Shown here piece after piece: positions 1,399 through 37,508 of a DNA stretch of 64,000 nucleotides. The translations under genes and the position numbers were made by a program. Below the pieces are notes generated by a model that did no database searches, was not told where the DNA came from, and was given only the letters and a program-made list of their open reading frames with translations. Numbering within the stretch: position 1 is the first letter of the stretch; each line of letters begins with the position of its first letter. The DNA comes from a virus (Duplodnaviria > Heunggongvirae > Uroviricota > Caudoviricetes), in the IMG/VR virus record IMGVR_UViG_3300043436_001089. One strand, written 5' to 3'.

Positions 1399-2796
1399 TT
1401 ATCTTGAATAGTACTGGTTCAATACATTACTATTAAATCCAACATCAATGATGACTGGTTTACCTTGATATAATCCCCAATTAGCTGGTCTGTGAAAATC
1501 AGCTAGTTCAACGTCAAACGAGCTTTTCAATTCTGATAGTCTGTTGACGTATTCTAAGAATGTATCGGCATCCTGCTCATTAGATCCAAAATGTTCATTC
1601 TTGTCAATAATATCATTTAATATATCTCTAGACCTAGTACCATATTCATTAAGTTGCGCTTGTGCCGCTCTGATTAAATCATCAAGTGATTGGCACTTCA
1701 TTAGACTACACAATTGCTTTTCATTTGCCTTCTGTGCTAACTCAGTGTGGACCCAACTTGGTTCACGATTCTGTTCATCATAATCAATGATAGGGATTAG
1801 TATACCCATTTGACTAGCGTAGCCATCACTAAGAATATCAGCTTCTACACTGTTCTGTGCTAGACCTTTGGCATTCTTAGCAATTTTCAATACTGTAGGA
1901 CGACCTTCATATTCAATAGTTGTAGCAACACGACTAGACCCGACGCCTAGCTTCTTTGCACGTTCAAGCGCATAAGCAAGTCTTGACTTGAATGATGTAC
2001 CTTGCTGACGCATTTGTTGAGGATCCCAATCAGCCGGAAGAGGCATCTCGTCAATAATTTCTTCATTCACACTTGGATCCCAGAACATACTCTTAGAACC
2101 CTTTTGGGTTGGCTTAAAACCTTGTCCCTTATAGAACTTAGTTAATTTACTTTGACTAACTTGTCCTTTATCCCAAGGGAATAACGTAAGTATAATGCCA
2201 TCTTCTTTAGCTAATAACTGAAGTTCTTTCATAGCACGACTGCCCACGCCTTGACGTAACGGATATGCTTGGAACCATTTAACTTCTACTGCACCACGTT
2301 TACTGAAACTTGGAGTTAGTTCAAACACTGCGAACTGTTGTTCATCACCTTCACCCCAAACCATAACGTGATTGTTCTGCATAGTATGTGGATACTTAGC
2401 ATAGACTTTTTCAATCCATGCTTTAGCAGGTTGATTACCTGAAAGTGTAATCTTTTGTTCTTCCCACACATACTCATCTTCACCGCGATGCTTATCCCAG
2501 AAGCCTGAACCAGCTTTGGTTTGATCGTGACTTCTATTGATGATATAATCTTCACTCTTTAGGTAGTCATACATTGACTTGGCAATGCCACGATTACGAA
2601 AATCGTCATGCACCCAAAGATCCTGTGGATATAGGTCTTTGTTTTCTTTAACAAACTTTACATATGCTAATGGGCTTCTAGTAGTAGGCTCAAATGCCTT
2701 CATAACTAATGCACTGTCGTTGAATGCATACTTTAAAATCAAGCCATTGACCTTAGCAGACTTAGATTCTTCAGTGATAAATTCAGTTGCTCTCAT
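1399..2796 (-). CDS. GNAT-GNAT-protein-kinase-like tri-domain protein with capsid-targeting-like leader
   Basis: VHDDFRNRGIA and PLRQGVGS acetyl-CoA motifs; LGVGSSRVA/VLKIAK/NSVE/DFHRPAN/IIDVG kinase motifs; starts MRATEFITE. Confidence 0.75.
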   Translation of the reverse strand: MRATEFITEESKSAKVNGLILKYAFNDSALVMKAFEPTTRSPLAYVKFVKENKDLYPQDLWVHDDFRNRGIAKSMYDYLKSEDYIINRSHDQTKAGSGFWDKHRGEDEYVWEEQKITLSGNQPAKAWIEKVYAKYPHTMQNNHVMVWGEGDEQQFAVFELTPSFSKRGAVEVKWFQAYPLRQGVGSRAMKELQLLAKEDGIILTLFPWDKGQVSQSKLTKFYKGQGFKPTQKGSKSMFWDPSVNEEIIDEMPLPADWDPQQMRQQGTSFKSRLAYALERAKKLGVGSSRVATTIEYEGRPTVLKIAKNAKGLAQNSVEADILSDGYASQMGILIPIIDYDEQNREPSWVHTELAQKANEKQLCSLMKCQSLDDLIRAAQAQLNEYGTRSRDILNDIIDKNEHFGSNEQDADTFLEYVNRLSELKSSFDVELADFHRPANWGLYQGKPVIIDVGFNSNVLNQYYSR

Positions 2797-3656
2797 TATT
2801 GCCCCGTCCAGACAGCGTATAAGCCTGTATCCGAATTGTAGCCACCGTATACTTTACTTAATTTTGTATCAACGTAAGCCTTCAACTCTTGTTTAGTAGT
2901 ATCAGGTTTTACATCAAACGCAAAGTATTCATCATCGTGGCGTCCTTTGCCCATGTACTGCCCACCCAGTTGTCCCATGATGATGTCAATATTCTTGTTG
3001 ACTTGTGCCGGGGTAGTATCACTAAATCTGCTTCGCTCTGCATTAGGGTTTAGATCGTCATCGTCCATAGAAAAGTAACCCTTCATCTCTACGCCGGGTA
3101 TACTAGCAAGACTGAGCCAGTTTCTACGACCACCGGGTGTTTGACTACTTCCGGCAAGTAATGGACGCTTCATAATAGTTAGTACGATACCATACAACGC
3201 CTTAGCAAGACCTACGCCACGATAATCTTCATCTACTGTGATAGTGTCAACTTGTACTGCACCTTTTAGTGGGAAATATTTAGCGTCACTGACTGACAAT
3301 TTGCCTATCAATTGTCCCGGAGTATTTAAGTCACGTTGGCTACGTTCCCAAGAATAAAGTCTAGTACGATAATCATAGATAGACTCTCTTCGGTTACGAA
3401 CTGGTTTAGGTTCAATGCCTCTTTCTTTTTGCGCAATAAAGTCTTTACCGTTTGGATCCCAAAGTTTGATATCAATGCCTCCGTATCTACCTTCGCTAGT
3501 AGAATACAGCAATCCACTACCGCCGGGTAGTTTCTTTACTTGCTTACCAACTTGTTTGTCATAGAGGCTGTCTTTACCGCCGCTGTAAGCACTAGGAGTT
3601 AATCTTTCGATCTCGTCAAGTTCTTGTGTTTCGTTTATAAATTCTGTTGCTCTCAT
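2796..3656 (-). CDS. GNAT-family acetyltransferase domain protein
   Basis: VDEDYRGVGLAKALY motif A; starts MRATEFINE. Confidence 0.7.
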   Translation of the reverse strand: MRATEFINETQELDEIERLTPSAYSGGKDSLYDKQVGKQVKKLPGGSGLLYSTSEGRYGGIDIKLWDPNGKDFIAQKERGIEPKPVRNRRESIYDYRTRLYSWERSQRDLNTPGQLIGKLSVSDAKYFPLKGAVQVDTITVDEDYRGVGLAKALYGIVLTIMKRPLLAGSSQTPGGRRNWLSLASIPGVEMKGYFSMDDDDLNPNAERSRFSDTTPAQVNKNIDIIMGQLGGQYMGKGRHDDEYFAFDVKPDTTKQELKAYVDTKLSKVYGGYNSDTGLYAVWTGQ

Positions 3657-4718: not shown

Positions 4719-6180
4719 TCTTTTTCTTTCTTAATCTGTTTTCTTCTAGATTGGCTGCATACTGAGGCTTGCCTGCTTTACGTGCAGCCAATCGTTTTTG
4801 TAATTCTGGATTCACCCCTTGTTGGCCTGGCTTGTATTGTGCAATGCCTTGACCAATAGCTGAGTTTGGTGTCGGCACGGGTGTTGTAGGTGTTGTTGGT
4901 TGGGCTGTAGTAGGTTGAGTTGGTGTTACCGCAGGTTTAGCTACTGGTGCCGCCGCAAACGGATCTGGTAATTTCAATTGTGCAAAAGCTGATGTGACCG
5001 CAGTATTTTCTATGCCTTGTGTTGTTAAGAATTTTGCCAATGCAACACTGTCAGTAGGACTGCCTGCCTTTGTCCATGCGCTTTTTAATTTGGCTGCATC
5101 AACTTTATTACCAGTCATACCAAACAATTCATTGAGTTGACTCTCTGTTACTTTTGCAGGAGCTTTAGCCCCGCCGGCTGCTTGACCTGCAACTGCTGAC
5201 AATGCGGGGCCTACTGAACTTAACAATGATGCTACTGCATTAGCCGCGTCACCAACTACTCCGGGCGGGATTTCTTTTACGGTACCCATAGCTTGTATGG
5301 CTGCATTCTGATACGCTTCAGAACCAATCTTTGCTAATGTCTTAGCCCAATTTGCGGCATCTGCGGCACTTGATGCATCCATTGCCGCACTAAGATCACC
5401 TATTTTAGCATTTCTCATTATTTCATTAGCGACTTTTTGTCCTTCACGATACGCTGCCATATCTTCTGGTTTTAGATAGAATTGAGCGCCATTGTAATTT
5501 ATACTGCCTACGCCACTAGACAAGAACTTAGTTGCACCTAATGCACTCAATGCTTCTCTAGCCTTAGATAATCCGCCTGCTGTTAGGCCTGCAACTGCGC
5601 CTGCTGTTGCGCCACGTCCGATAGCAGTAGATGCTTTTTGTCCTTGTAACAATCTGTCAGCAATATTAATAATTCCAGTTGCAATACCAGCACCTGATCC
5701 TACTGCTAACGCACTTGCTCCAATTCCGCCTGCTAATGCTACACCTAATGAGGCAGCAATAGAACCTGCGATTGCTAATAAGAACTTGTGCATCTTAGGA
5801 TTGTTCTTAGCATACTCTCCATACTTTGCTAACTTGGCAGCAATTTCAGGATGCTTAGTAGCAACGCTACTCTTAATAGATTCCCACTTCTCATCAAAGC
5901 CTTGAACTGGTGCACTATTCTGTAACATGCCACCAAACTTATTGAACCATGCATCACTTATTTTATCTTTGGCTGCTCCGACTACATCAGTAGCTCTACC
6001 CAACATACTACGACCTGCGTTTTGTTGTACTGTTGAAAATATTTGGTCAATCTGTGCAGGGTTTAGAGCCATCTCACATAATGTAGGATGAATCTCACGT
6101 TCCCATGTACTGAAGTACGTGTCACCTCTACCTATGCTTTCAAAGATAGATTGTTTTCTAGTTAAATCTAATGCTCTCAT
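4705..6180 (-). CDS. Ala/Gly-rich putative virion internal/ejection protein
   Basis: Long Gly/Ala hydrophobic segment, Pro/Thr linker and repeated x-x-E sites; no catalytic motif. Confidence 0.4.
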   Translation of the reverse strand: MRALDLTRKQSIFESIGRGDTYFSTWEREIHPTLCEMALNPAQIDQIFSTVQQNAGRSMLGRATDVVGAAKDKISDAWFNKFGGMLQNSAPVQGFDEKWESIKSSVATKHPEIAAKLAKYGEYAKNNPKMHKFLLAIAGSIAASLGVALAGGIGASALAVGSGAGIATGIINIADRLLQGQKASTAIGRGATAGAVAGLTAGGLSKAREALSALGATKFLSSGVGSINYNGAQFYLKPEDMAAYREGQKVANEIMRNAKIGDLSAAMDASSAADAANWAKTLAKIGSEAYQNAAIQAMGTVKEIPPGVVGDAANAVASLLSSVGPALSAVAGQAAGGAKAPAKVTESQLNELFGMTGNKVDAAKLKSAWTKAGSPTDSVALAKFLTTQGIENTAVTSAFAQLKLPDPFAAAPVAKPAVTPTQPTTAQPTTPTTPVPTPNSAIGQGIAQYKPGQQGVNPELQKRLAARKAGKPQYAANLEENRLRKKKNVIR

Positions 6181-6181
6181 T

Positions 6182-8419
6182 TTATTGTCTCAACTTTAAA
6201 CCTCTGTGCATAGCAGTTCCTTGTGCTGAAATTGGGCCTCCGTGTAGCCCATCACGTTCTTCACCATTACTATTGTACCACTTACCATCAGCGCCTTTCT
6301 TCAAAGGTTCTTTTGTTTGATAATCAACAGGTGTAAATGGTTTGTTACTACCGGAGTCACTTTGGGGAGAAACTTTTTGTTGCTTACCATTCATTCGTGC
6401 TTGTAATTCAGCTTTGGCGGCATCAATACTTACCATTGGTCTTTGATGTTCCCCAGAAACCACTTGTTGCAAGTATACATCGCTTAAACCACTAGGATTA
6501 AATTGTGCCTGTGCTTGCCCTGCACCGCCTAATGCTCCTAGTGCCATTGCACCTGCAGCCGCGGCATGCTTCCAATTGATTTCATCTACTTGTTGTAGAC
6601 CTTCTAAGATAGAACTTTCTTTTACTTTAACACAGTCATCTTTACCGTTTTCTGTTCCATTGTAGCGGTAGCCGGGCCAGCAAGCCTTACCATCAGCGCC
6701 TTTGATTTTTTCTTCTGCTACATCAGACTTCACAAAACCAATACCACTGCACTTGCCACATTTGTATTTCTTGGCATCTGGACGATTCATAGGATGAACT
6801 TCACCGTCATCTGTTTTGTAAACATAGCCCTTGCCATGGCATCTCTTGCAACCAGTCTGTGTTCTTTTTATAGTAGGACCTGGCATATGGTCTACTTCAG
6901 GATATCCACCTTCCGCCACACCTTGACCTAATACTTGTTTTACTAACAGTTGAGGAGCAAACTCCATATCACCGGCTAACTCTCTTGCGGCCGCTAATAC
7001 TGCTTGTGGAGTAGGTTGTAATCTTTTTTCTTCTACATCTCGGCGTAGTTTCATAATAAGAGATTGTGCATCATATCCTAAATCTCTAACGCCTTCCGCC
7101 ACACCTTGCTGTCTCTGTAGTTTGGCAATTCTTGCTTGATACATTGCTACATCTTTTGGACGCTTATATGGACCAGCAGCAATCTTCTTTAATTCATCTT
7201 GATATTTTTGGATCAAATATTCTGGAGTCATATATGAATCGTTGCCAGGATGACGGCGTAGTGGATCACTATAAGGGCGTCCATCCTTCATACCAGGTCT
7301 GTCACCTTCCGCCACACCTTGCTCTTTTTGAGAATCTCGGTAAAGTCTTTTCAAGTGTTTCAATGCTTCTTCTCTAGTATCCGGGCCAGCAACAAAAGAA
7401 TTACCCACTTGTGCAGTATAAAAGATCATACCGCTTTGTGTGGTAGTTGTTGTTATGCTACCAACTTTTTTACCTTTAATAAAAATATCTTCTACAGTTC
7501 TTTTTGTTTTTGCTTCATCAAGTTCAGCCTCCGCCACACCTTGCTCTTTGACTTTTTTACGCAAAGGATTAGTGGGATCATCTTGGAATCCTTGTTTGGC
7601 CCCTTGCTTGATATATTCATCATAACCAGATGGTCGCTTGATTGGTTTCTTGTCGTTCTTGGCCAATTTGGTAGGAACTCCCATCCAATCTGTTGGTGTT
7701 TTAGAGCCTTCCGCCACACCTTTGATAGTATAGTCTGGACGACTACGAACTGTTTCTTGATGTAGGTCTCTGAGTCCTTCGATTGCGTCTTCTCTGGAAT
7801 CAATAAAATCATTGCCGCTGTCCATACGATAATGGAAAAATCCCCAACCATTTTCGTCTTGATAAATCTCACCAATTGGTCTACCGTTGCGTAATTTAAT
7901 TACTTCGGCATTAGGGTAGATAGTATCGTTCGAGCCTTCCGTCACACCTTGCTCTTTAGGTGGGTTAACTGGAACAGTCTTATATACACGCTTGACAGGA
8001 TCCCACACAGTTTTGCGCTCACCTTGTTTAGCCATCTGACCTAGACGCTGAACTTTATCTTGATACTCAGGACCGTAATCTTGTTCTGCTTCAGATACAT
8101 TCTTTGATGCTATCTCATGAAATTGAGGACGACCAAATTGAAAGTTTGCTCTTTGAATTGGTATACGACTGACCCAATGGCCTCTATGATGTTGCAGGCC
8201 CAATTCTTTTGCTATACTTTCTTGACCAGTAGGTACATCGTATTCATATACACCGTTACGAGTTTCAGCAGAACTAGTTGGTAATTCATCTGGTTCATTA
8301 AGACCAGCATTTCGTTCGCCACTTAAATCGCTTCTACGGCGTGTATCCATGGCATTCTGTTGGTCTTGTTCATCACGATTAAAATAACCTTCATTCAAAC
8401 CTTTTAGAATATTGCTCAT
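6182..8419 (-). CDS. Modular polyprotein of QGVAEG-delimited cassettes (includes CxxCxGxG zinc finger, CWPGY module, internal signal-peptide-like segment)
   Basis: Six (Q/K)GV(A/T)E(G/A) linkers separate unrelated 60-76 aa modules. Confidence 0.8.
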   Translation of the reverse strand: MSNILKGLNEGYFNRDEQDQQNAMDTRRRSDLSGERNAGLNEPDELPTSSAETRNGVYEYDVPTGQESIAKELGLQHHRGHWVSRIPIQRANFQFGRPQFHEIASKNVSEAEQDYGPEYQDKVQRLGQMAKQGERKTVWDPVKRVYKTVPVNPPKEQGVTEGSNDTIYPNAEVIKLRNGRPIGEIYQDENGWGFFHYRMDSGNDFIDSREDAIEGLRDLHQETVRSRPDYTIKGVAEGSKTPTDWMGVPTKLAKNDKKPIKRPSGYDEYIKQGAKQGFQDDPTNPLRKKVKEQGVAEAELDEAKTKRTVEDIFIKGKKVGSITTTTTQSGMIFYTAQVGNSFVAGPDTREEALKHLKRLYRDSQKEQGVAEGDRPGMKDGRPYSDPLRRHPGNDSYMTPEYLIQKYQDELKKIAAGPYKRPKDVAMYQARIAKLQRQQGVAEGVRDLGYDAQSLIMKLRRDVEEKRLQPTPQAVLAAARELAGDMEFAPQLLVKQVLGQGVAEGGYPEVDHMPGPTIKRTQTGCKRCHGKGYVYKTDDGEVHPMNRPDAKKYKCGKCSGIGFVKSDVAEEKIKGADGKACWPGYRYNGTENGKDDCVKVKESSILEGLQQVDEINWKHAAAAGAMALGALGGAGQAQAQFNPSGLSDVYLQQVVSGEHQRPMVSIDAAKAELQARMNGKQQKVSPQSDSGSNKPFTPVDYQTKEPLKKGADGKWYNSNGEERDGLHGGPISAQGTAMHRGLKLRQ
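6909..7951 (-). repeat. Dispersed 17-nt in-frame repeat CAAGGTGTGGCGGAAGG, array 1
   Basis: Exact copies at 6909-6925, 7092-7108, 7305-7321; near-exact at 7527-7543, 7707-7723, 7935-7951; periods 183/213/222/180/228 nt, all multiples of 3. Confidence 0.95.
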
Positions 8420-9189
8420 TTTGATTTTCCTTCTGCCGCGCCCTGCTTGTAACCATTGAGATAAGTTGTTTTCATCAATGCGCTAGCCATATGCTGTTTG
8501 TTTTTCTCTGCGCCGGCTTTACCATCTTTGACGCCGGCTGAAAACACTTTCTTTGAAGCAGCTTTATGTGCGTCTGTTACTGGTCCGTATGCGGCTTTGC
8601 CTTCCGCCACGCCCTGAACTTGCTTACCTTCTAAGTATTCACGCACACTGTTTAGATAGTCATTGGCTTTGATAATCTTTTCTTGAACCCAGCCCTGTAG
8701 ACCTTCATCTTCACTAGTAGATTCTATCATCCTATAAATTGATTCTGCGTTCTTTGCGGCACTGATTAAATCACTGCGAGCCATCTCAACTTCATGGTCA
8801 ACACGACTCTTACCGTGTGGTACAAATCCAGTTTTCATTTTACGGCCTTGGCCGGGAACTAATACAATGTCTTCTTCTTCTAGTCTAGCTTCGCTGACTG
8901 GTTCAGGTTTAGCAGATAAGTTCTTACGAGCTTCCTGCTTAGTCATCTTGTATTTCTTTTTGAATTCTTCGTCTTTTAATTCTTTAAGATCCATTGATAG
9001 TTGCTTCATAGCACCTTCAGTTAAGCTATTAGCATAAGGACCTTTTTTCTTTGTTGAACCCTTCATGACTTTTTCTGCGGGCTGTAAGCCTGCGACTTGA
9101 GGTCGTGTCTGTACCTCACCTAAGGGTTTTGAAACTGTAGCTACTGATCCTGCAGTAGTAGTTTCATTGATAATTTGATTGATTTTCAT
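8416..9189 (-). CDS. Putative internal head protein, modular
   Basis: Starts MKINQIINE; QGVAEG linker at 8600-8616 and QGAAEG at 8429-8445. Confidence 0.5.
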   Translation of the reverse strand: MKINQIINETTTAGSVATVSKPLGEVQTRPQVAGLQPAEKVMKGSTKKKGPYANSLTEGAMKQLSMDLKELKDEEFKKKYKMTKQEARKNLSAKPEPVSEARLEEEDIVLVPGQGRKMKTGFVPHGKSRVDHEVEMARSDLISAAKNAESIYRMIESTSEDEGLQGWVQEKIIKANDYLNSVREYLEGKQVQGVAEGKAAYGPVTDAHKAASKKVFSAGVKDGKAGAEKNKQHMASALMKTTYLNGYKQGAAEGKSK

Positions 9190-9232
9190 AGCAATTCCGA
9201 AGTAATATAGTATTTATCAAAATACTATCTAA

Positions 9233-10249
9233 TCAGAATTTGCCGTTAGGATTCGCAGTTGGGGGTATGCCTGCTCTGTCAGTCAACCAAGAAAATGCTT
9301 TTGCATTCTTTTTGATACTGTCAGGTTTAATATCTACTGTTAATGCTGTCTTGAAACGAGGATCATTTTTCTCTTTTTCGCTTGGAATGTAACCACTAGC
9401 TTCACTTATTGATCCACGATATTGCCTATCTCGTTGACCACCGTATGGGTTTATGTCAGATGTTTTTTCTGAAGCATATTGCATTGTGTCTTCTTTTGCT
9501 ACAGGTAGTTCTTGAACCTTAACAGGGTCTTGATACATTGTTTCAAAACTTAAAAATTTGCTATGTAGCTTATCTCTTAGTACATACAATTTAGTAATAT
9601 ATCCCTGACTACGCAGTGCTTTGAATGCTAGATTCTCTGGACCAAACTCACCACCTTTATCTAGTCCTGCTTGACGATAACGTTTAATCGTCTTCAATAC
9701 TTTTTCAACTTTGTGCAGGTCTTTAGATAATAACGCTACTTCAACTACTTTTAGTAGTTTTTCATACTTTGCTTGTGTTGCAGTATGGTCAAAATTTGCT
9801 CTACGCTTAGTAGGTAATCTTAACCATTCATTGTGTAATATGCTGTATTCCCCTAAGCTAACTACAGGTTCATTAGCGTCTTGTACATATAACTCTACAG
9901 GCACCTTGTTTACAGTTATGTCGTGAGAATCATTGTATAACGTTTTCTTCGCATTAAACAATTCTTTATAGACTTCATCGTTGTTTAGTCCATTAGTATC
10001 TACTAAGATATGCAGGTCTAAGTCACTATGATTTGTATAGCTATAGGCTGCGTTTGATCCTGAAACTGTTATGTCTTTTACATCTAAGTCATCTACACCT
10101 AATTCTTCTAAGAAATCTTTCGCTATCAATATTAGTTGATCCTTGACCGCAGGCTTAAGACGGTGTCCTGTCCATAATGCAGGATTTAAATGATCGTGGA
10201 AAGTAACTGCGTCTGACAGTTTGAAGGAATCAAGCTCTTTTAAGTTCAT
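9233..10249 (-). CDS. Pol-beta-superfamily nucleotidyltransferase
   Basis: VSGSNAAYSYTNHSDLDLHILVD (GS..DxD) plus a downstream VELYV-D strand. Confidence 0.75.
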   Translation of the reverse strand: MNLKELDSFKLSDAVTFHDHLNPALWTGHRLKPAVKDQLILIAKDFLEELGVDDLDVKDITVSGSNAAYSYTNHSDLDLHILVDTNGLNNDEVYKELFNAKKTLYNDSHDITVNKVPVELYVQDANEPVVSLGEYSILHNEWLRLPTKRRANFDHTATQAKYEKLLKVVEVALLSKDLHKVEKVLKTIKRYRQAGLDKGGEFGPENLAFKALRSQGYITKLYVLRDKLHSKFLSFETMYQDPVKVQELPVAKEDTMQYASEKTSDINPYGGQRDRQYRGSISEASGYIPSEKEKNDPRFKTALTVDIKPDSIKKNAKAFSWLTDRAGIPPTANPNGKF

Positions 10250-10253
10250 TAAG

Positions 10254-10261
10254 TATTTATC
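10254..10261 (-). promoter_or_regulatory. T4-like late promoter GATAAATA, 4 nt upstream of ATG
   Basis: Resembles the T4 late -10 box TATAAATA; motif recurs upstream of many genes here. Confidence 0.65.
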
Positions 10262-10266
10262 AATAC

Positions 10267-10347
10267 TTACTTAGTTGGATGATTGTTTTCGGGGACAGGG
10301 TCTCTGCGTGGAGGGTACTTTGGGGGTTTGTGCTTATACCAAGACAT
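10267..10347 (-). CDS. 26-aa Pro-rich micro-ORF (MSWYKHKPPKYPPRRDPVPENNHPTK)
   Basis: Own TAAATA box (10368-10373) and AAAGGGAG RBS. Confidence 0.65.
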   Translation of the reverse strand: MSWYKHKPPKYPPRRDPVPENNHPTK

Positions 10348-10384
10348 AGTTGTATCTCCCTTTCTTTTATTTATGATAGTCATT

Positions 10385-10404
10385 AAAAAAGAGCCTTTCG
10401 GCCC
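10385..10404 (-). terminator. Rho-independent terminator downstream of pstS
   Basis: GGGCC-GAAA-GGCTC followed by T6 on minus strand. Confidence 0.75.
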
Positions 10405-10450
10405 TTAGTGCTAGTTACGAATTCTAGCCGTACTCTATTTTGTACGCGGT

Positions 10451-11458
10451 TTACTTAATTTGTGTCCAAACACGTTCACGGATCTGTTTAGTTAAACTAT
10501 CAGGTAATGCCACATAGTCTAAGTCGGCTGCATCTTTCTTACCATTCTTGAATGCCCAATCAAAGAACTTTAGTACTTCATCACTGTTGGCTTTGTTTGC
10601 AGGGTTCTTATACATGATGATAAAGCTTGCTGAACTTACAGGCCAAGCATTGGGATTCTTTTGATCTACAATACTCAATCCCATACCTGGGACTGAGAAC
10701 CAATCAGCACCGTCAGCGGCTGCGGCAAATGTTAAGTCATCTGGACTAACATACTTGCCTGACTTGTTTTGTAGTTGTAGGAATGTCATATTGTTCTTCT
10801 TAACATAAGCATACTCTACATAGCCAATTGAGCCTTTGATTCTGTTCACGTTGGCAGCAACACCTTCGTTGCCCTTGCCACCTACTGAACTAGCAGCCGG
10901 CCATTTCACTGCGGCACCACGACCCACACGCTGTAGCCACTCAGGGCTAACAGTAGCAAGATAGTCTGTCCAGTTGAATGTTGTACCACTTCCATCTGCA
11001 CGATGTACCACAGTAATTTCTGTATTAGGTAATGTCTTACCTGGATTGAGTGCTATTAGTTTAGGATCATTCCAACGATTGATGTTGCCCATGAACACTT
11101 CTGCCATAACCGGTCCAGTGATCTTTAGTTCACCGGGCTTAAATCCATCTAAGTTAACGACAGGAACTGTTCCGCCAATGATAGCAGGGAATTGAACCTG
11201 AGCCATCTTGTCTAAGTTCTCTCCAGTTACTGGAGCATCAGTTGCTCCAAAGTCTACTGTCTTTGCGTTAATTTGTCTAATGCCGCCGGATGATCCGATA
11301 CTTTGATAGTTCATACCAGTGCCCGTGGCTTTTTTATATCCTTCTGCCCACTTGGCATAGATTGGGAATGGGAAAGTCGCACCAGCGCCTGTTATGTCTG
11401 CGCTAAATGCGACCGTTGATATTAGTAATGCACCTACTAATGCTGTCAGTTTTTTCAT
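10451..11458 (-). CDS. pstS: Phosphate ABC transporter substrate-binding protein
   Basis: ITGAGATFP, YQSIGSSGG, DFGATD, HRADGSGTT, IGYVE motifs; start refined to MKKLTAL with AAGGAG RBS. Confidence 0.97.
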   Translation of the reverse strand: MKKLTALVGALLISTVAFSADITGAGATFPFPIYAKWAEGYKKATGTGMNYQSIGSSGGIRQINAKTVDFGATDAPVTGENLDKMAQVQFPAIIGGTVPVVNLDGFKPGELKITGPVMAEVFMGNINRWNDPKLIALNPGKTLPNTEITVVHRADGSGTTFNWTDYLATVSPEWLQRVGRGAAVKWPAASSVGGKGNEGVAANVNRIKGSIGYVEYAYVKKNNMTFLQLQNKSGKYVSPDDLTFAAAADGADWFSVPGMGLSIVDQKNPNAWPVSSASFIIMYKNPANKANSDEVLKFFDWAFKNGKKDAADLDYVALPDSLTKQIRERVWTQIK

Positions 11459-11509
11459 GTAATAGTCTCCTTGTGTGTTAGTATTACACAAGTATTTACT
11501 TCAGGAATT

Positions 11510-11538
11510 GTGACAATACGATGACAAACATGTGACTA
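11510..11538 (-). promoter_or_regulatory. Triple Pho box (PhoB site) upstream of pstS
   Basis: TAGTCAC-atgt-TTGTCAT-cgta-TTGTCAC with 11-bp period; matches the CTGTCA(T/C) half-site consensus. Confidence 0.85.
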
Positions 11539-11548
11539 TTTGCCCATT

Positions 11549-11570
11549 AAAAAAGCCCCTTTCGGGGCTA
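11549..11570 (-). terminator. Rho-independent terminator insulating pstS
   Basis: AGCCCC-GAAA-GGGGCT followed by a T-run. Confidence 0.85.
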
Positions 11571-11572
11571 AT

Positions 11573-12472
11573 TTATGTTGTCTTAATAGTAACGTTGCCG
11601 TTGCTATCAGGCTGGGGTTGCTGACTTGCTTGTGCAGCCTTTTGAGCTTGCTGTTCAACATACATAGGACCAACTGTACTCAATAGATGTTCTTGATTCT
11701 CCATACAGAATACATAAGATCCTGAATGACGCAATAGAATACGCTTGTCCATCCAAATCTTACCACCTAGATCACGCCAGTTTTCACAGAATGTCCAGTC
11801 TTCACTGTAGTAACGATTCTGACGAACTGCTGTGTCAAAGTAAGTCTTTAAGTGTTGGTCATACTTAGGATCTAAACCAATGTCATTCTTGTATGGCTTA
11901 ACTGCAGGGTGCTTGTTAAGCTTTTCAAATACATGCTTCTTCATTAATAAGAAACCTGTACCTGCTTTAGATACTTCTTGGAAGCCATCGGGGCCTTCTT
12001 CTGCGCCTTCAAATCCGTTGACAACCCATTTAATTGGCATTGTCTTCATTGGATACAATCCTGCACAAACATCTACGTCACGGTTCAATAGAACTAATAG
12101 ATGCCATGGCTCCCAACCAATGTCAGCGTCAACAAAGAACAAGTGAGTAGCATCAGGCATGTCCAAGAACTTTGCAGTTAGTGTATTACGTGCTCGGCTA
12201 ATCAATGATTCGTTGACCATTGTTTCTAATGTCCAATCAATACCAAGTTGACGGGCTGTGTTAGCCCACTTGATGAAAGACATGAATGTTGATTCTGTTA
12301 GCATACCGCCATAACATGGCATTGCGATATGAACTTTGGTTGTGCGTAAAAAGTCTACGTTGACTTGTACTTGACCTTGTTGTGGTGCAGCTTGTTGTGC
12401 TGCCTGTTCAGCGATTTCTTGTACCTTTTCTACTGGTACTGTTTTCTCTGCTTTTGGTTTCTTAGTTGCCAT
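11573..12472 (-). CDS. GT-A fold glycosyltransferase-like protein
   Basis: VHIAMPCYGG, ESLISRARN, LFFVDADIGW (DxD), YSEDWTFC. Confidence 0.75.
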   Translation of the reverse strand: MATKKPKAEKTVPVEKVQEIAEQAAQQAAPQQGQVQVNVDFLRTTKVHIAMPCYGGMLTESTFMSFIKWANTARQLGIDWTLETMVNESLISRARNTLTAKFLDMPDATHLFFVDADIGWEPWHLLVLLNRDVDVCAGLYPMKTMPIKWVVNGFEGAEEGPDGFQEVSKAGTGFLLMKKHVFEKLNKHPAVKPYKNDIGLDPKYDQHLKTYFDTAVRQNRYYSEDWTFCENWRDLGGKIWMDKRILLRHSGSYVFCMENQEHLLSTVGPMYVEQQAQKAAQASQQPQPDSNGNVTIKTT

Positions 12473-12523
12473 AAATTCCTCTTGTTAAGATAGTAATATT
12501 TACATCAAAACAAGGGGGTCAAA

Positions 12524-14602
12524 TTATTTTTCGTCTAGATAATCAGCACTTTCGGACACATTAGTTTTGCCTAATGCGGCGAGCATCGCACGTGCTACAA
12601 CACGATCCTTCTCTTTTTCTTCTTCTGGAAGTTGACTGTATGATTGCATTGCTAACTTAGCACGTTTCAACTTCTTTTCTTCCGGAGTAGGGGTATCTAA
12701 TTGTAGTTGACCTTTATAGTCTGCTGCCGCAGTAATGTTCCAACCTTTGTGAATAGCATCACTGATAGCTTCGATATCAGTTTCACCAGCATCAATTAGT
12801 TTCTTTGCGGCTTTAGCTGATTGTAGATTTGCCATCCAACCAAAGTTTGCACCCGGGGTAGAGCGACCATAATGATATGCATCGTCTAATGCCTTGTCGC
12901 TGATATGTGCTAACTGTTCGATTGACAGTCCCGCGCTTTCATAAGTAGGCATTGGTCTTTGTCCTGGGCGACCTTTAACTCCACGCTTCTCTGTGCTTGG
13001 TGGTTTTGTTGGCGGAACAATGTCGCCTTGATTTCTATATGGCTGCGGAGTCTTTTTAGGATTGCGTATGTGGATAGGAGCCTGTGCTACTACAATTGGA
13101 GCACCTTCCGCCACACCTTGCAATGAACTCAAAAAAGCACTCAATTCTTCTGCTCCACTACCCATCTTACCACTTTGATGTTTCCAATTAGAACCAATAC
13201 GAGCAATCTTATCACCATTATCATTTACATAAACACTACCGTTGTCTGTGTAATAATCGAAATTATTCAGTGTCCATATTAGATCATCCTTTGACTGAGA
13301 TCCTTCCGCCACACTTTGCTTTTGTCCCATATAATATGGACTGTTTAATAATTCTTTGAACCACGGCGTATCTTTGAATTCTTCAATCTCTGCTGTGCGT
13401 TTAGGATTGAAATAGAAACCCTTCATTGTACCTTGAATAGGCATTGCACCTTTAGGAACAACTATAACTTCTTCAAACTCATCACCTACTGTTTGTGTAC
13501 CTTGACTTGTGCCAAACATTTTGTAATGATTGGCAACTGCACTACGATCAAATACTATTATGACTGAGTTGCCTTCCTTAGTTAAATTCAAGAAATTAAC
13601 AAAATCGTCAGATTCAGCATATTGTTTTGACCTAGTTGTGCTTACTGTAGGCGACTGTGTTCTGGCTTTAGTTGCTTCTTGTGGTCTATAACTTGCTTTG
13701 ATCGCGCCGCTACGCAATATACGCATCATCCCACTAGGTTGAGTAGCGTGATAAAGATAGTTATCACCCACTGCCTCATCTAAGCCTTCCGCCACACCTT
13801 GACCTTTTAGTTGACGAGTAGCTGAATTTAACTGGCTCAAATTCACACTTCTTTCGCCCTCGTTGCCCCAAATTAGATCAACACTTAGTGGTCTGCCGTT
13901 TTTATAAAAATGCAACTCATTGCTAGTAGTTTTGAAATGATCCGCACCATAGTGACGCAATACCTTTACAGCATCATCCATTGGCAAAGTTTCTGCTACG
14001 CCTTCCGACACTTGTTCTTGCCCGCCCATACCTATGTCTAACATCTTAACAACGTTAGCGGCAAGTTTAGGATTCTTTTGTGTCACTGGATACAAACTCA
14101 TGACCATTGCAGTCTTGCGACGGTCGTCTAAGTTAGGCCATGCGTTACGAATCTCTGTAGCACTTTTAATGCCAGGACCAAACTCTACTGTAGGCAAGTA
14201 AGCAATGTATGCATGTTTGCTAAACGGTTGTAGATTCTTTCCTGTCCAGGGTTGAAAATATGCTGGACTCCCGTCCTTCTTTGTTCCACCTGGTTTAGGT
14301 TGCTCAGTCTTGTCTTTTTCGCTACGAACAAAGATTAGTACATCTTCGTTAGGATTATAGTTACTAGTAATTTCTTCTGCTTTGAATGGACTCTTAACTT
14401 GTACAAAATGTTGGTCGGCAACACCTGCTAGTCTTGCTAGTTTCTCTTTAATAGCAAAAGGAAACGGGCGTGTTTTCGTGTCATTAGTAGCGGCTACATA
14501 CGTATCAGCATTATCAAATGCTTTTAATGCACTTTGATATAATGCGGCATGTCCTGCGTGAAATGGATGAAAGCCTCCCGGCATAATGACAATATTTCTC
14601 AT
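12524..14602 (-). CDS. HIGH-family nucleotidyltransferase fused to cassette modules (ART-like, RyR domain)
   Basis: PGGFHPFHAGH HIGH motif; QGVAEG linkers; YHAT/STT/EFE motifs; HKGW...YSQLPEEEKEKDR. Confidence 0.75.
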   Translation of the reverse strand: MRNIVIMPGGFHPFHAGHAALYQSALKAFDNADTYVAATNDTKTRPFPFAIKEKLARLAGVADQHFVQVKSPFKAEEITSNYNPNEDVLIFVRSEKDKTEQPKPGGTKKDGSPAYFQPWTGKNLQPFSKHAYIAYLPTVEFGPGIKSATEIRNAWPNLDDRRKTAMVMSLYPVTQKNPKLAANVVKMLDIGMGGQEQVSEGVAETLPMDDAVKVLRHYGADHFKTTSNELHFYKNGRPLSVDLIWGNEGERSVNLSQLNSATRQLKGQGVAEGLDEAVGDNYLYHATQPSGMMRILRSGAIKASYRPQEATKARTQSPTVSTTRSKQYAESDDFVNFLNLTKEGNSVIIVFDRSAVANHYKMFGTSQGTQTVGDEFEEVIVVPKGAMPIQGTMKGFYFNPKRTAEIEEFKDTPWFKELLNSPYYMGQKQSVAEGSQSKDDLIWTLNNFDYYTDNGSVYVNDNGDKIARIGSNWKHQSGKMGSGAEELSAFLSSLQGVAEGAPIVVAQAPIHIRNPKKTPQPYRNQGDIVPPTKPPSTEKRGVKGRPGQRPMPTYESAGLSIEQLAHISDKALDDAYHYGRSTPGANFGWMANLQSAKAAKKLIDAGETDIEAISDAIHKGWNITAAADYKGQLQLDTPTPEEKKLKRAKLAMQSYSQLPEEEKEKDRVVARAMLAALGKTNVSESADYLDEK
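13104..14011 (-). repeat. Dispersed 17-nt in-frame repeat, array 2
   Basis: Exact at 13104-13120 and 13785-13801; 1 mismatch at 13302-13318; core GTGTCGGAAGG at 14001-14011; periods 198/483/216 nt. Confidence 0.93.
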
Positions 14603-14603
14603 G

Positions 14604-14990
14604 TTAATAACTTAATTTCACAAAGTTAACTCCGCCACCTTGAAAGTCAACGATTTTTGCTCGTAAGAAAACAAAGTTACCTTCTACGTTAGTATATACT
14701 GACGCATTTGATGCCAATTGAGGGGCGCTGTTCGATGTAGCATTTGCATTAGCTACTAGCTCATGTACTTTAAACCAGCTGTTAGCTAACGGTGGATTTG
14801 CTAGTGTTGCTTCTATAACTACATTACCTGTCAACTGAGTTACATTAATGTTGACAGTTTGTAGGTCTTTATTACCTAGATAGTAAGCGGCAGCAGGTTG
14901 ACTATTACCAGTCACTGTATAAGGAGCTCCGTTACCTGGATTTTGATAAGTCGTTTGTGGCAACAGTATCAATGTTGTTGTTTGGCTCAT
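14604..14990 (-). CDS. Hypothetical, beta-rich (possible virion protein)
   Basis: Operonic ORF; no motif recognised. Confidence 0.55.
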   Translation of the reverse strand: MSQTTTLILLPQTTYQNPGNGAPYTVTGNSQPAAAYYLGNKDLQTVNINVTQLTGNVVIEATLANPPLANSWFKVHELVANANATSNSAPQLASNASVYTNVEGNFVFLRAKIVDFQGGGVNFVKLSY

Positions 14991-15160
14991 GTTTTGACAA
15001 CCTCAATAACCTCAACTACTACACTATCACCAATTAATTCTTGGGCTACTTGTTCCAATGCCGCTTGGATATCAGGGCTAGTGATACTAGTTCCCTCATC
15101 ATTGTCTTTTACTATCTTGCTAAAAGAGATTATGATTGATTCTGTTACAATCTTTGCCAT
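14987..15160 (-). CDS. 57-aa hypothetical protein (MAKIVTESIIISFSKIVKD...)
   Basis: Not in the ORF track; GGAG RBS, TAAATA box at 15185-15190, ATGA overlap with next gene. Confidence 0.75.
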   Translation of the reverse strand: MAKIVTESIIISFSKIVKDNDEGTSITSPDIQAALEQVAQELIGDSVVVEVIEVVKT

Positions 15161-15195
15161 GGTAAATACTCCATTTTATTAGAGTATTTATCATT

Positions 15196-15921
15196 TCAAA
15201 CAATATCGGGACGCTTTTCTAATTTGTACTTTTTACCCAAGACTTCACCGTGCATCAGTGCTAGATAACTTAATGTACTTTCATCATCGTAGTCGATAAA
15301 GTGTGCAGAACTTAGATATCTAAATGACCAAATACCCCAACGCTTTGGGTCACGTTTTAACCATTCTTTTAATGCATTACTCGGATAAAGTTCTTTTTGT
15401 CTAGCTAACATAGATGTTAACTCTACATGAAAGTTATCTTCTACACGCTTGGATCTAAGATATACACGATACTTGTGTTTAGGTTCTTCTACGAAATGCT
15501 TAACACCTGCATACTGACTAGTTTGTACTTGCGTGTAATCGTAACTGTATTGTGTTCCGATTAATGGTGCTAAGTCATGTAGTACACTCAAATCATTGCT
15601 GAAAATTGCGACAGTCCCACTCTCAATACGTACTCCTAAGTCGTTATGTTTCTTCCTAGTAGTCTGAATAATAATGATTGCCTTCAAGGCTGCAAGATTA
15701 TCTATTACAGTCTGTAAATCACTTTTGCGGATATTACCGTAACCTTTAAATCTGCCCTGAATTTTAGTGTCTAGGTCTTCTGGTTTCTTACAGTACCATG
15801 TATATCTCACACAAGGGATTGCAACCCTCATGCGAAATTCATACTTGTTATAGTAGTTATCGTCCCGGTAATCGTAGAAATTGATACCGGGTACGTTGTC
15901 AACTGATTTCAATAATCCCAT
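15196..15921 (-). CDS. Hypothetical protein
   Basis: ORF; start refined to MGLLKS. Confidence 0.55.
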   Translation of the reverse strand: MGLLKSVDNVPGINFYDYRDDNYYNKYEFRMRVAIPCVRYTWYCKKPEDLDTKIQGRFKGYGNIRKSDLQTVIDNLAALKAIIIIQTTRKKHNDLGVRIESGTVAIFSNDLSVLHDLAPLIGTQYSYDYTQVQTSQYAGVKHFVEEPKHKYRVYLRSKRVEDNFHVELTSMLARQKELYPSNALKEWLKRDPKRWGIWSFRYLSSAHFIDYDDESTLSYLALMHGEVLGKKYKLEKRPDIV

Positions 15922-18163
15922 CTTCACCAACTCTTGCTGTAGATTTTTGAACAACGTTAAAATCAATTTCACCGTTAACTAGTACTGCATTAACTGTTGC
16001 ATTTTTGATTCGTTGGAATAGAATCTTCTTACTCAGTGGTACACGCAGTAGAGAATCAATTTTTCTTCCTAGTGGTCTTGCACCCATCTTCTTATCATAA
16101 CCTTGTTCTGCCAAATATTCAATGACAGGCTCAGACAATGACATAGTAATGTTATGCTTTTCAAACAGGCTCTTTTTCAAGTCATCAGTGAACTTAATAA
16201 CAATTTTCTTAATTGCTAGCATGTCAAGTTTGTTGAATTTGCAAATCAAGTCAAGACGGTTTCTGAATTCAGGCTTGAAGAATTCCTTCAAGGCTTTATC
16301 ATCTTCACCTGTCTTTTCAGTAGATCCAAAACCAATATTAGATCGTTCGCTATCAGCACTACCCAAGTTACTAGTCATGATAATGATAGTGTTCTTGCAA
16401 CTAACTTGTTTACCATTGCTACCTGTAATCTTACCTTCGTCAAGCATTTGCAAGAAGATGTTAAAGATATCAGGGTGTGCTTTTTCAACTTCATCAAACA
16501 ACATGATAGCGTGAGGGTTCTTACTCAAGTCGCTAATTAGTCGTCCGCCGCCTACTTGACTGTCACCAAAGCCAACATAACCAGGAGGAGGTCCGATCAG
16601 TGAGCTAACACTGTGCTTCTCTCCGTACTCACTCATGTCATACTTGAGCAATGGCATGTCAAGGTTCTTACTTAGCAACTTAGCAAGTTCAGTCTTACCT
16701 GTACCTGTTGGGCCTAAGAACAAGAAACTTGCAGTTGGCTTAGTTTCGTTACCGATGCCAGCGAATGAAACATATACACGTTCTAATACTTGTTGAACAG
16801 TTTCATCTTGACCGTACAGTTTACCCTTGATGTTTACTTCCAAGTTGTTAATCTTGTCGTAGTTGTCACCCGAGAGTTTATCAGCAGGAACACCTGTAAA
16901 CTTTTCAACTTGCTCAAACACAAGATCCTTAGTGATGACTGCACCTTCGTTACCAGCAACACGTTGTTTAGCACAAGCCGCATCAAGCAAGTCAATACTC
17001 TTGTCAGGATTCTTACGGTCGTGAATATAACGGGCAGAACTTTCAACTGCGGCTTTAATAGCTTCGTCTGTGATGTTAACATTGTGGAAGTCATTCAATC
17101 GTGCAGACAGTCCGGATAGAATACGAACAGTGCTATCTTGACTAGGTTCGTCAATAGATACACGATAGAATCTACGCATCAAAGCACGATCCTTCTCAAA
17201 CGATTCATAGTACTCTTCCCATGTAGTACTAGCGATAACTTTCAATGTGCCTTTGGTAATCGCAGGCTTAATCATGTTTGCAAAGTCTGGTCCACCACTG
17301 TTGCTTGAACCTGCACCTTGCATAGTATGTGCTTCGTCAATGAACAAGATAGATTTCTTCTTAGTGTTCAATGCTTCTAATACTGCCTTAACTTTTTCTT
17401 CAAAGTCACCTCGATACTTAGATCCAGCAAGCAATGATCCTACTTCAAGACTGTAGACTTCGTGACCCTTCAGGAACTCGGGGGCAGTACCATCTTCAAT
17501 CATACTAGCAAGACCTTCAGCGATAGCAGTCTTACCCACGCCCGGGTCACCAACCATCAATACGTTAGCTTTGAATCGTTTAGCAAGAACGTTAACGATA
17601 TCATCAAGTTCTTTTGCACGACCGATTAGTGGTTCAAGCTTGTTATCTTTTGCTAGTTTAGTGAGGTTAGTTGTGTATTCTTCAAGGATCTCGTCTGCTT
17701 GGTTATCAGTCAAGTTAGTAGAATAGTCTGAACCTTTATATGTCTTTTGCCAGTGTTGGACAAACTCATTCTTGTTAACACCATACTTCAACAGGAAGTA
17801 ATGTGCGTGACTGTTACCTTCACTTGCAATAGAAAGGTACAAGTCAATAGTCAATACTTGTCTACGACCAGTAAACAATACTTGTGTGACAGAACGGTTC
17901 ATAACACGTTCTAAACTATTAGTCTTACGAGGAACAACCGGATCTTCTTTGGATACGATTGCATGAAGATTGTTGATGTATGATTCAATTTCATCAGTCA
18001 TTGAATCAACGTCTGCACCGAAACTAGTCAAGCATTTCTTGAAAGGTGCATGTGTTACTAATGCGTACAATAGATGTTCAATTGTACAATACTGGTGTTT
18101 CTTTACTTTTGCAAACTCAATTGCCTGTTCAATAATTGATTCAATCTCTGGAGAATTATTCAT
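15899..18163 (-). CDS. clpA: ATP-dependent Clp protease ATP-binding subunit
   Basis: Clp N-domain; two AAA+ modules (GDPGVGKT, LFIDEAH; GPTGTGKT, LFDEVEKAH); IGF loop; no ClpB middle domain; start MNNSPE with AAGGA RBS. Confidence 0.95.
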   Translation of the reverse strand: MNNSPEIESIIEQAIEFAKVKKHQYCTIEHLLYALVTHAPFKKCLTSFGADVDSMTDEIESYINNLHAIVSKEDPVVPRKTNSLERVMNRSVTQVLFTGRRQVLTIDLYLSIASEGNSHAHYFLLKYGVNKNEFVQHWQKTYKGSDYSTNLTDNQADEILEEYTTNLTKLAKDNKLEPLIGRAKELDDIVNVLAKRFKANVLMVGDPGVGKTAIAEGLASMIEDGTAPEFLKGHEVYSLEVGSLLAGSKYRGDFEEKVKAVLEALNTKKKSILFIDEAHTMQGAGSSNSGGPDFANMIKPAITKGTLKVIASTTWEEYYESFEKDRALMRRFYRVSIDEPSQDSTVRILSGLSARLNDFHNVNITDEAIKAAVESSARYIHDRKNPDKSIDLLDAACAKQRVAGNEGAVITKDLVFEQVEKFTGVPADKLSGDNYDKINNLEVNIKGKLYGQDETVQQVLERVYVSFAGIGNETKPTASFLFLGPTGTGKTELAKLLSKNLDMPLLKYDMSEYGEKHSVSSLIGPPPGYVGFGDSQVGGGRLISDLSKNPHAIMLFDEVEKAHPDIFNIFLQMLDEGKITGSNGKQVSCKNTIIIMTSNLGSADSERSNIGFGSTEKTGEDDKALKEFFKPEFRNRLDLICKFNKLDMLAIKKIVIKFTDDLKKSLFEKHNITMSLSEPVIEYLAEQGYDKKMGARPLGRKIDSLLRVPLSKKILFQRIKNATVNAVLVNGEIDFNVVQKSTARVGEDGIIEIS

Positions 18164-18170
18164 AGTTTCC

Positions 18171-18983
18171 TTAATTTTTGGCTTTAGCTTGCTTGATACT
18201 ATCAATGATAGATGTATCAATGTTATCAGGTAAAAACGGTTTCAGCAATAGTATTTGGTCACCGTATGTAGTGTAGCCCATAATAGGCATGCCTTGCCCT
18301 GCGATTTTCATATGCATATGTGGTTGAGTGCCGGGAGGGATAGTAACTTCTAGTGTGGTTCCCGAAATAGTAGTGAACTCAATAGTAGTTCCCACAATCA
18401 AATCTAGCACAGATATAGGTTGATTACAATAAAGGTCGTTACCATTTCTGTCAAAACGTAGATGCTTTTGAATTCTAAACTCTACGATAAGAGTAGCACC
18501 GTCAAGTACATCATTAATACGAACTTGGGAACCGTCTTGTACACCTTTGGGTATATCTACTTTTACCATATTGTATCCAGTTGGTGACTGAATTTTTAGT
18601 AACTGTTCACCACCGCTGTACACTTGTTCCAATGATACTACAACACTGGTACGGTAAATTTGCGTAGCCCTGCGCTGTTGATTAGTTGATTGTTTGAAAA
18701 ACTCTGCGAACATATCATTGAAACCTCCACTAGTTCCGAATGAGAATCCGCCGGGGAATCCACCTGCACCAAAATCTTGAAAGTTAAAATTCTGAGAAGG
18801 ATTGTCATATTGACTCTTTTTCTCAGCATTACTCAAAATGTCGTATGCAGTTTGAATTTTTTGAAATGTAGCAGTATCACCACCCTTGTCTGGATGGTGT
18901 TGACTTGCTAATTTGCGATATGCTTTTTTTATGTCTTCAGATGTAGCATTTTTAGCTATACCTAATGTATTATAATGGTCCAT
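18171..18983 (-). CDS. dnaJ: DnaJ/CbpA-like class B J-domain protein
   Basis: HHPDKGG J-domain, G/F region, C-terminal domain; no zinc finger. Confidence 0.92.
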   Translation of the reverse strand: MDHYNTLGIAKNATSEDIKKAYRKLASQHHPDKGGDTATFQKIQTAYDILSNAEKKSQYDNPSQNFNFQDFGAGGFPGGFSFGTSGGFNDMFAEFFKQSTNQQRRATQIYRTSVVVSLEQVYSGGEQLLKIQSPTGYNMVKVDIPKGVQDGSQVRINDVLDGATLIVEFRIQKHLRFDRNGNDLYCNQPISVLDLIVGTTIEFTTISGTTLEVTIPPGTQPHMHMKIAGQGMPIMGYTTYGDQILLLKPFLPDNIDTSIIDSIKQAKAKN

Positions 18984-20802: not shown

Positions 20803-20970
20803 GTTGTATTTATCTTTTATCCTATAATAGGACTAATAACATTTCCTGTTTACCTTAGCCTAATATTTATGCTAGGGAATTGTGTTAAAACACTACTATT
20901 GTAACGTGGTTGACCCCACTTAAATAAGAATGAACGTTCACATCGTTCACGCTCTACAAAGGAGAATCAC

Positions 20971-37483: not shown

Positions 37484-37508
37484 TTCTTATTCCTGTATTC
37501 AGTATTTA

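Follow-up and report, generated by a model that had tools for sequence, protein, structure and literature searches.

Can one short DNA repeat serve both as the place where phage genomes exchange protein modules and as the place where the encoded protein is cut? The question is raised by a 64,000-nucleotide (nt) stretch of viral DNA (Caudoviricetes; IMG/VR record IMGVR_UViG_3300043436_001089), referred to below as the window, in which a 17-nt motif, here called the joint, recurs in frame within three minus-strand genes, A, B and C. A first-pass annotation had proposed such a double role. The reading favored here, to which we give somewhat better than an even chance, is that the three genes encode late-expressed cargo polyproteins of a T4-like jumbo phage, which are shuffled at the joint and cut by a gp21-type protease.

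Copies and reading frame of the joint

In a motif scan of the 64-kb window, CAAGGTGTGGCGGAAGG was found on the minus strand exactly at 6909, 7092, 7305, 13104 and 13785 and with one or two mismatches at 7527, 7707, 7935, 8600 and 13302. These 10 matches compare with 0.12 expected in the window, and 0 of 100 shuffles reached 10. All 10 lie in frame in three minus-strand open reading frames (ORFs), where they encode Q-G-V-A-E-G or close variants, and an ORF scan found no copy in any other ORF of the window. The positions, mismatched copies and in-frame spread over three genes given by the first-pass annotation were confirmed, and both of its upstream flank subfamilies, AAAGAG-CAAGG and GGT-CAAGG, were found. 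The full joint comprises 17-18 nt read in frame as CAA GGT GTG GCG GAA GG(C). An additional core listed by that annotation at 14001 is real, though it is a decayed joint: it reads Q-V-S-E/G and is followed by G-V-A-E encoded with GTA GCA, which belongs to cassette C2, so that the true C1/C2 joint lies four residues earlier than a simple motif split would place it.

Splitting the genes at the joints gave the cassettes A1-A7, B1-B2 and C1-C5, of 60-242 residues. They are listed below with the joints; within peptides, a slash marks the split.

6182..8419, minus: gene A, 745 aa, anchor A1 and cassettes A2-A7
7937-8419, minus: anchor A1, leader MSNILKGLNE/G at its start
7935..7951, minus: joint A1/A2, 1 mismatch, QGVTE/G
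7709-7936, minus: cassette A2
7707..7723, minus: joint A2/A3, 1 mismatch, KGVAE/G
7529-7708, minus: cassette A3
7527..7543, minus: joint A3/A4, 2 mismatches, QGVAE/A
7307-7528, minus: cassette A4
7305..7321, minus: joint A4/A5, exact 17-mer
7094-7306, minus: cassette A5
7092..7108, minus: joint A5/A6, exact 17-mer
6911-7093, minus: cassette A6
6909..6925, minus: joint A6/A7, exact 17-mer
6185-6910, minus: cassette A7, CxxC zinc ribbon at its start and a probable decayed joint SDVAE/E at ~6713-6721
8416..9189, minus: gene B, 257 aa, anchor B1 and one cassette
8602-9189, minus: anchor B1, conserved, leader MKINQIINE/T at its start
8600..8616, minus: joint B1/B2, 2 mismatches
8419-8601, minus: cassette B2, decayed terminal joint QGAAEG, then KSK and stop
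12524..14602, minus: gene C, 692 aa, anchor C1 and cassettes C2-C5
14003-14602, minus: anchor C1, NadD/NMNAT-like adenylyltransferase fold, no N-terminal leader
14001..14011, minus: decayed joint C1/C2, QVSE/G, then a non-joint GVAE with GTA GCA
13787-14002, minus: cassette C2
13785..13801, minus: joint C2/C3, exact 17-mer
13304-13786, minus: cassette C3, ADP-ribosyltransferase (ART)-like fold
13302..13318, minus: joint C3/C4, 1 mismatch, QSVAE/G
13106-13303, minus: cassette C4
13104..13120, minus: joint C4/C5, exact 17-mer, upper boundary of a variant in four lake runs
12527-13105, minus: cassette C5, weak RyR-like match
12527..12562, minus: C-terminal tail of the gene C family, 12 codons, NVSE/SADYLDEK, hydrophobic-x-E and an 8-residue tag, lower boundary of the same variant

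Conservation of silent positions

Counted against codon usage, as the first-pass annotation had proposed, the synonymous sites of the joint were far more conserved than background. GTG makes up 10.6% of Val codons and GCG 7.9% of Ala codons in the window; 9/9 joint V-A-E tripeptides are encoded GTG GCG, whereas 4/4 non-joint V-A-E (6721, 13999, 25648 and 31208) are encoded GTA GCA. These codons are indeed, as had been noted, fixed in the joint and uncommon elsewhere. When the window was combined with 48 related loci, the Val codon was GTG in 64/76 distinct linker contexts and the Ala-position codon GCG in 59/76 (59 of the 61 Ala codons). GTC (1/76) and GCC (0/76) are almost unused in the joint though as rare as GTG and GCG in the background, so a specific sequence is conserved rather than codon rarity. 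In alignments of the orthologous C1, B1 and C3, columns with an invariant Val or Ala vary between 2-4 codons, of which GTA/GTT and GCA/GCT are the main ones. Across 107 distinct contexts, conservation is confined to positions -3 to +14 (~18 nt) and the flanks hold no information; 105/107 are open in the joint frame, and a single match was on the other strand. The silent positions of the joint are fixed well beyond what the peptide requires. GC-biased gene conversion was considered as the cause of GTG and GCG and rejected, as the CAA, GGT and GAA of the joint are not the GC-richer synonyms.

Nucleotide conservation could instead serve translation or RNA, through rare-codon pausing, internal initiation or RNA processing, with shuffling as a by-product. 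GTG and GCG are rare here and the joints lie between folding units, as this explanation would have it. It is nevertheless very improbable, given the near absence of the other rare codons, the presence in the joint of the common codons CAA, GGT and GAA, the lack of a consistent start codon after the joint, and a length of 17 nt that cannot fold alone.

Cassette exchange between relatives and within populations

An exact-match scan located the 17-mer in at least 120 IMG/VR stretches; among the 80 stretches listed there were 103 copies, 98 of them open in frame, in 102 distinct contexts. Window cassettes match IMG/VR relatives from joint to joint over their full length, but the genes that contain them and the order in which they stand are different. 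When 13 pairs were compared at the nucleotide level, identity was 77-100% within the cassette bodies, the joints on both sides were conserved, and identity beyond them fell to ~25%, i.e. random. Cassette A6 is identical over 162/162 nt in L042 and L043, while their A1 anchor shows only 59% protein identity. In L038, one gene reads A7n-A6-C4, an array that draws on both gene A and gene C of the window and has A6 and A7 the other way round; C2 lies within an A1-anchored gene of L041, and the ART-like C3 is located in other genes in a dozen loci, among them L010 and L026-L031.

Clustering of 33 distinct multi-joint genes gave 89 cassette families, 29 of which recur; 21/29 recurring families have more than one left neighbor and 19/29 more than one right neighbor. 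In family numbers, the A1-anchored gene reads 1-5-28-88-27-7-20 in the window, 1-7-23-79-80-24-5-25-26 in L042 and 1-7-23-21-6-24-5-25-26 in L043. In the gene C family the enzyme head and the 12-codon tail are constant and the middle differs in almost every relative. The tail follows the pattern hydrophobic-(S or T)-E/(S or N)-x-DYL-(E or D)-EK in ~30 loci (e.g. L016, L017 and L018), whatever cassette precedes it, and may be a 3' boundary of the array or, as a guess, a removable C-terminal tag.

Related phages thus move, delete and replace single cassettes between genes and genomes, with crossovers in the joint. The exchange at a conserved DNA site that the first-pass annotation had proposed is borne out by nucleotide breakpoints in the joint and by a content and order that differ in nearly every relative; of the two sequence-based observations that it had named as refuting it, joint codons conserved at background level and an identical module order, neither was made.

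Logan contigs of four lake runs were mapped onto 6000-14800. In 4/4 runs a contig joined 12562 to 13104 with sides of 30-45 nt, a variant in which C5, the last cassette, is deleted or replaced exactly between the joint and the conserved tail. Other contig joints between linkers had sides of ~20 nt, which is the joint itself, and were left uncounted; a contig with the zinc-ribbon cassette before A5 was a single weak record and was not used.

Mosaicism could arise as an artefact of metagenome assembly through a short repeat, and Logan and IMG/VR contigs do often end at or near a joint (Logan contigs at 7081, 7719/7748, 8605, 13104/13133 and 13765/13791). This explanation is scarcely credible. 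At 17-21 nt, the joint is shorter than the k-mers used in assembly and is spanned by reads; alternative architectures recur across metagenomes, one in L010, L011, L012 and L035 and another in L027-L030; and nearly all the copies listed are in frame. An independent 2020 lake run, X3, which is not marked as a potential source of the window DNA, bridges the joints with 0 differences (records over 7061-7748 and 7719-9596), and its contigs reproduce the window arrangement, which makes an artefact unlikely. Metagenome assemblies break at the joint, so that assembled viral genomes probably show too few cassette arrays. Public contigs ending within tens of bases of the 17-mer include L057, L059, L077, L091, L094, L103 and L106.

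Arrays often finish in a joint, decayed or intact, with only a few codons between it and the stop, as in QGAAEGKSK (gene B, 8419-8460) and KQGVAEDN (P0004), and also in L013, L033 and L044; these short terminal joints look like relics of lost downstream cassettes. In L002, L013, L015 and L022 (~10001-10400), the core of the RyR-like C5 forms an ORF of its own immediately upstream of the NMNAT-like gene, so cassettes exist as separate genes too.

Mechanism of exchange

Tyrosine recombinase PF00589 had no match in four large relatives (G002-G005, including a genome with a completeness rating of 100%), whereas every control genome gave a match, and no recombinase family was matched in ten ORFs scanned around the arrays. 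An attC-type imperfect inverted repeat was not seen, the conservation being one non-palindromic 17-18-nt stretch without conserved flank, nor was a circular junction seen among the reliable joints of the Logan contigs from the four lake runs. A RecA/UvsX-like recombinase gene is present in the four relatives. General homologous recombination is the likelier route, given this gene. The integron-like array of the first-pass annotation therefore stands as far as cassettes are exchanged at the joint, and fails as to an integron mechanism, for which recombinase, attC-like structure and circle were all missing in the searches just described.

A site-specific system could replace general recombination, with a dedicated nuclease or recombinase, for instance one of the genes resembling homing endonucleases that are common in these genomes, recognizing the 17-mer and bringing about integron-like excision, circles and in-frame insertion. 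The fixation of silent sites to one sequence, with the equally rare GTC and GCC almost unused, and the sharply bounded conservation would fit, as would GIY-YIG-like and HNH-like ORFs beside head genes in relatives. Besides the missing tyrosine recombinase, inverted repeat and circular junction, the arrays of the window have no candidate gene linked to them, and we regard such a system as rather improbable. The same low probability is given to its fuller form, in which the 17-mer would be the recognition site of a dedicated phage enzyme (nuclease, nickase or recombinase) and the same six codons would also specify a head-protease site through which each cassette product is released within the capsid, as a protein-level integron. 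The GIY-YIG-like and HNH-like ORFs lie by or between the protease, scaffold and capsid genes, at 2669-3646 in L054, 2094-2717 (minus) in L050 and 2652-3404 (minus) in L053.

The joint as a candidate protease site

In 4/4 large relatives, PF03420 (Peptidase_S77, gp21) and PF07068 (gp23-type capsid) were matched over the cut-off, with a gp22-like scaffold gene between them. The capsid protein of these relatives begins ...KQLLAE/SS.GTTTAGNIATLNR, with a predicted cut after L-A-E, placed where T4 gp23 would lead one to expect it. C3 also has stand-alone homologues, which begin with MRA(S/T)EFIVE/AVG.. or MRVYELFE/AVG.., and the C3 of the window follows ..QGVAE/GLDEAVG..; with a T4-like leader directly before the stand-alone module, leader and joint occupy the same boundary. 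Two neighboring genes of the window carry the leader found on the stand-alone C3 copies:

1399-2796, minus: gene starting MRATEFITE
2796-3656, minus: gene starting MRATEFINE

The leaders of genes A and B end in L-N-E and I-N-E, and gene C has instead the conserved C-terminal tail. Junctions with diverged DNA keep hydrophobic-x-E (LAEG, LSEG, LDEG, VNEF and VKEF). In AlphaFold models the ends at the joints are disordered, with pLDDT <50 at residues 1-7 and 157-161 of C3 (82 overall) and 195-200 of C1. Q-G-V-A-E/G looks like a cutting site of the head protease, and cleavage and packaging are plausible inferences.

The joint could, however, be a recombination patch and flexible linker only, and the chains uncut polyvalent proteins, packaged or not. 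The shuffling and codon evidence would fit equally well, phage polyvalent proteins with 2-15 domains per polypeptide have been described (PMC5512222), and this reading gains from gene C having no N-terminal leader and from the cuts being predicted rather than observed. It is harder to reconcile with the retention of hydrophobic-x-Glu and a small residue where the junction DNA has diverged, with the same cassette standing at the same boundary after a capsid-targeting-type leader ending in I-V-E, and with the capsid L-A-E site and gp21-type protease of the relatives; a pure linker would need no invariant Glu. Uncut chains are judged unlikely, if less so than a site-specific enzyme.

Content of the cassettes

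The modules were unrelated to one another, as the first-pass annotation had stated, with the exception of A2 and A4, which are weakly paralogous, with 28% identity over 63 aa (E 7e-7). Searches of Pfam and PHROGs with whole genes and single cassettes returned one match over the cut-off, CTP_transf_like on C1, which has a NadD/NMNAT/PPAT-type nucleotidyltransferase fold and an HxGH motif (AlphaFold pLDDT 87.5). The 50 fold matches of C3 listed from the PDB are weak (E 2e-3 to 0.1, TM 0.3-0.5), and among them all but one belong to the ADP-ribosyltransferase superfamily, including Tpt1/KptA, cholera toxin A1, DarT and PARP catalytic domains. AlphaFold DB matches of C3 include Tox-ART-HYD1 and DarT, and its invariant His, S-T-T-R and E-x-E-E positions agree with the ART fold; a PDB sequence search with C3 was empty. 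C5 gave a RyR-domain match below threshold, A2 led to small alpha/beta domains and nothing firmer, and the other cassettes had no recognizable family in Pfam or PHROGs. The small effector domains of the first-pass annotation thus appear in part enzyme-like, through the ART-superfamily fold cassette and the NadD/NMNAT-like anchor. Neither Pfam nor PHROGs revealed an embedded peptidase in genes A, B and C or in single cassettes. The Atlas model of whole gene A (pTM 0.17) is a hint at most, and a MAFFT alignment of full-length mosaic homologues misplaced small cassettes and was not used for a whole-chain model.

Phage context and a late-promoter-like motif

The window comes from an uncultured jumbo (giant) T4-like myophage, with tail sheath (40740-44306), tail tube, sheath-stabilizer and fiber genes, which occurs in many lake-water metagenomes. 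The same joint is carried by the four large IMG/VR relatives, one of which (524 kb) is the genome rated 100% complete; the nearest record, G001, does not span the locus. No relative was found in INPHARED by megablast of the locus or tblastn of gene A; with gene C the only match was one of 30% identity to the enzyme head, and a 33-nt joint query gave chance-level matches only.

The motif GATAAATA occurs 12 times in the window against 3.95 expected, always on the coding strand and 15-35 nt upstream of a gene start. Among the genes behind it are tail and virion genes, those of the B-A operon and a run of genes of which gene C is the last:

9211-9218, minus: GATAAATA ~20 nt upstream of the gene B/gene A operon
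15185-15192, minus: GATAAATA heading the gene run that ends with gene C
10254-10261, 20807-20814, 34415-34422, 37503-37510, 40696-40703, 46265-46272: further copies of GATAAATA
48817-48824, 54018-54025, 56440-56447, 59728-59735: further copies of GATAAATA

The canonical T4 late promoter TATAAATA was not enriched in the window (3 vs 6.2 expected), and GATAAATA is probably the version of it used by this phage group. Since the motif also precedes tail and virion genes, A, B and C are probably late genes. A short minus-strand ORF at 15080-15160, which starts MAKIVTE (leader-like), follows the GATAAATA copy at 15192 and heads the run to gene C. A PstS-type phosphate-binding protein with a signal peptide is encoded at 10451-11491, between the cassette genes, and a ClpB-like two-AAA ATPase at 15899-18220, just upstream of the locus.

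Proposed model

In the cargo-polyprotein reading, each gene would open with a conserved anchor, after which small cassettes that fold on their own are joined in a variable series. Exchange would take place by the general homologous recombination of the phage (UvsX-type) on the short identical patch; cassettes with a perfect joint would stay mobile and hence be over-represented, by which the DNA of the silent sites would be held. Q-G-V-A-E/G would act as a hydrophobic-x-Glu site of the gp21-type prohead protease. Capsid targeting would come with the anchors, through a T4-like leader in A and B and through a C-terminal tag in C, so that the whole chain is proposed to be loaded into the prohead. 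There it would be cut into single small proteins, which would be injected with the DNA as a changeable host-modifying or counter-defense set.

Several points weigh against this model. Recombination alone leaves the fixation of silent sites unexplained, and 17 nt is short for UvsX-type recombination; for the T4 system, a requirement for small homologous patches (<50 bp) has been described (Singer 1982, as cited in PMC2839356). A preference of gp21 for Val at P3 is not known, the leaders here having I-(T/N)-E and the capsid L-A-E. The packaging of gene C, which has no leader, would rest on the candidate C-terminal tag. The protease evidence comes from relatives and not from the genome of the window's own phage, and cleavage and packaging of the chains are predicted.

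If the model is true, a phage would have a simple route for rebuilding its injected protein arsenal: any small domain with flanking joints would drop in frame into a capsid-targeted chain and be freed by the resident protease. This would explain the fast diversification of host-takeover and counter-defense proteins in giant phages, and hundreds of unknown small cassettes would become candidate injected effectors. The joint would then be a clear example of selection acting on one short sequence as DNA and as peptide alike. It may also offer a natural rule of design for packing several foreign proteins into capsids of the T4 type.

Comparison with known systems

The internal proteins of T4 and the T-even phages are diverse, non-essential and injected, and share a short N-terminal packaging signal (PMC12373910, PMC3012670). 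In T4 Ip1-3 and their relatives and in Alt, this capsid-targeting sequence is removed by the gp21 prohead protease. The leaders seen here (MRATEFI(T/N)E, MKINQIINE and MSNILKGLNE) resemble it, and the relatives have gp21/gp22/gp23-type genes. T4 internal proteins have one gene and one leader each, whereas here up to seven cassettes share one frame and the cut-site-like motif is internally repeated and fixed at the DNA level.

The first-pass annotation knew of no description of such a repeat. This was too strong, as motif-based shuffling is known in T4-type phages (PMC2839356, PMC3157838), although a full-text literature search for the joint peptide found no published description of it and nothing relevant. 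In the PeSLs of T4-type phages, short conserved DNA motifs flank accessory ORFs, and recombination inserts, deletes and replaces modules (Arbiol et al. 2010, PMC2839356; Comeau et al. 2014, PMC4122927), probably via the phage's own recombination system and with mini-circles included (PMC2839356). The joint resembles them in being a conserved short DNA motif at breakpoints between related phages, as seen in the 13 pairwise comparisons and the neighbor statistics. Unlike PeSLs, which are intergenic promoter-terminator elements and move whole genes, it is coding, lies in frame in 105/107 contexts, is 17-18 nt long and moves domains within genes. The glycine-rich motifs of the gp38 adhesin and conserved tail-fiber motifs of T-even phages are in frame and separate hypervariable segments, and chimeras form within or near them (Trojet et al. 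2011, PMC3157838). They make up the structural core of a single domain and their synteny is fixed, whereas the joint separates unrelated autonomous domains that are free in number and order.

Polyvalent proteins, known from phages and conjugative elements, have 2-15 domains, enzymatic and counter-defense, are likely packaged and delivered with the DNA, and have been proposed to be processed (Iyer et al. 2017, PMC5512222); the processing is ascribed to embedded peptidase domains, and the word 'linker' is absent from the main text (PMC5512222). The present genes are similar in having 5-7 cassettes per gene, including NadD/NMNAT-like, ART-like, zinc-ribbon and weak RyR-like ones. They differ in having no Pfam match to MuF, zincin-like MPTase, ArdC-N, ParB-like and related domains, and no embedded peptidase was found.

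The arrays resemble integrons in that their exchangeable cassettes follow a conserved anchor and are delimited by a short conserved site; unlike integrons, no IntI-type recombinase or attC was found, and the cassettes are translated as one chain. In polymorphic toxins such as CdiA (VENN) and Rhs, the tips are swapped at a conserved pre-toxin motif. Those toxin tips are exchanged at one joint, whereas the chains described here have many internal joints.

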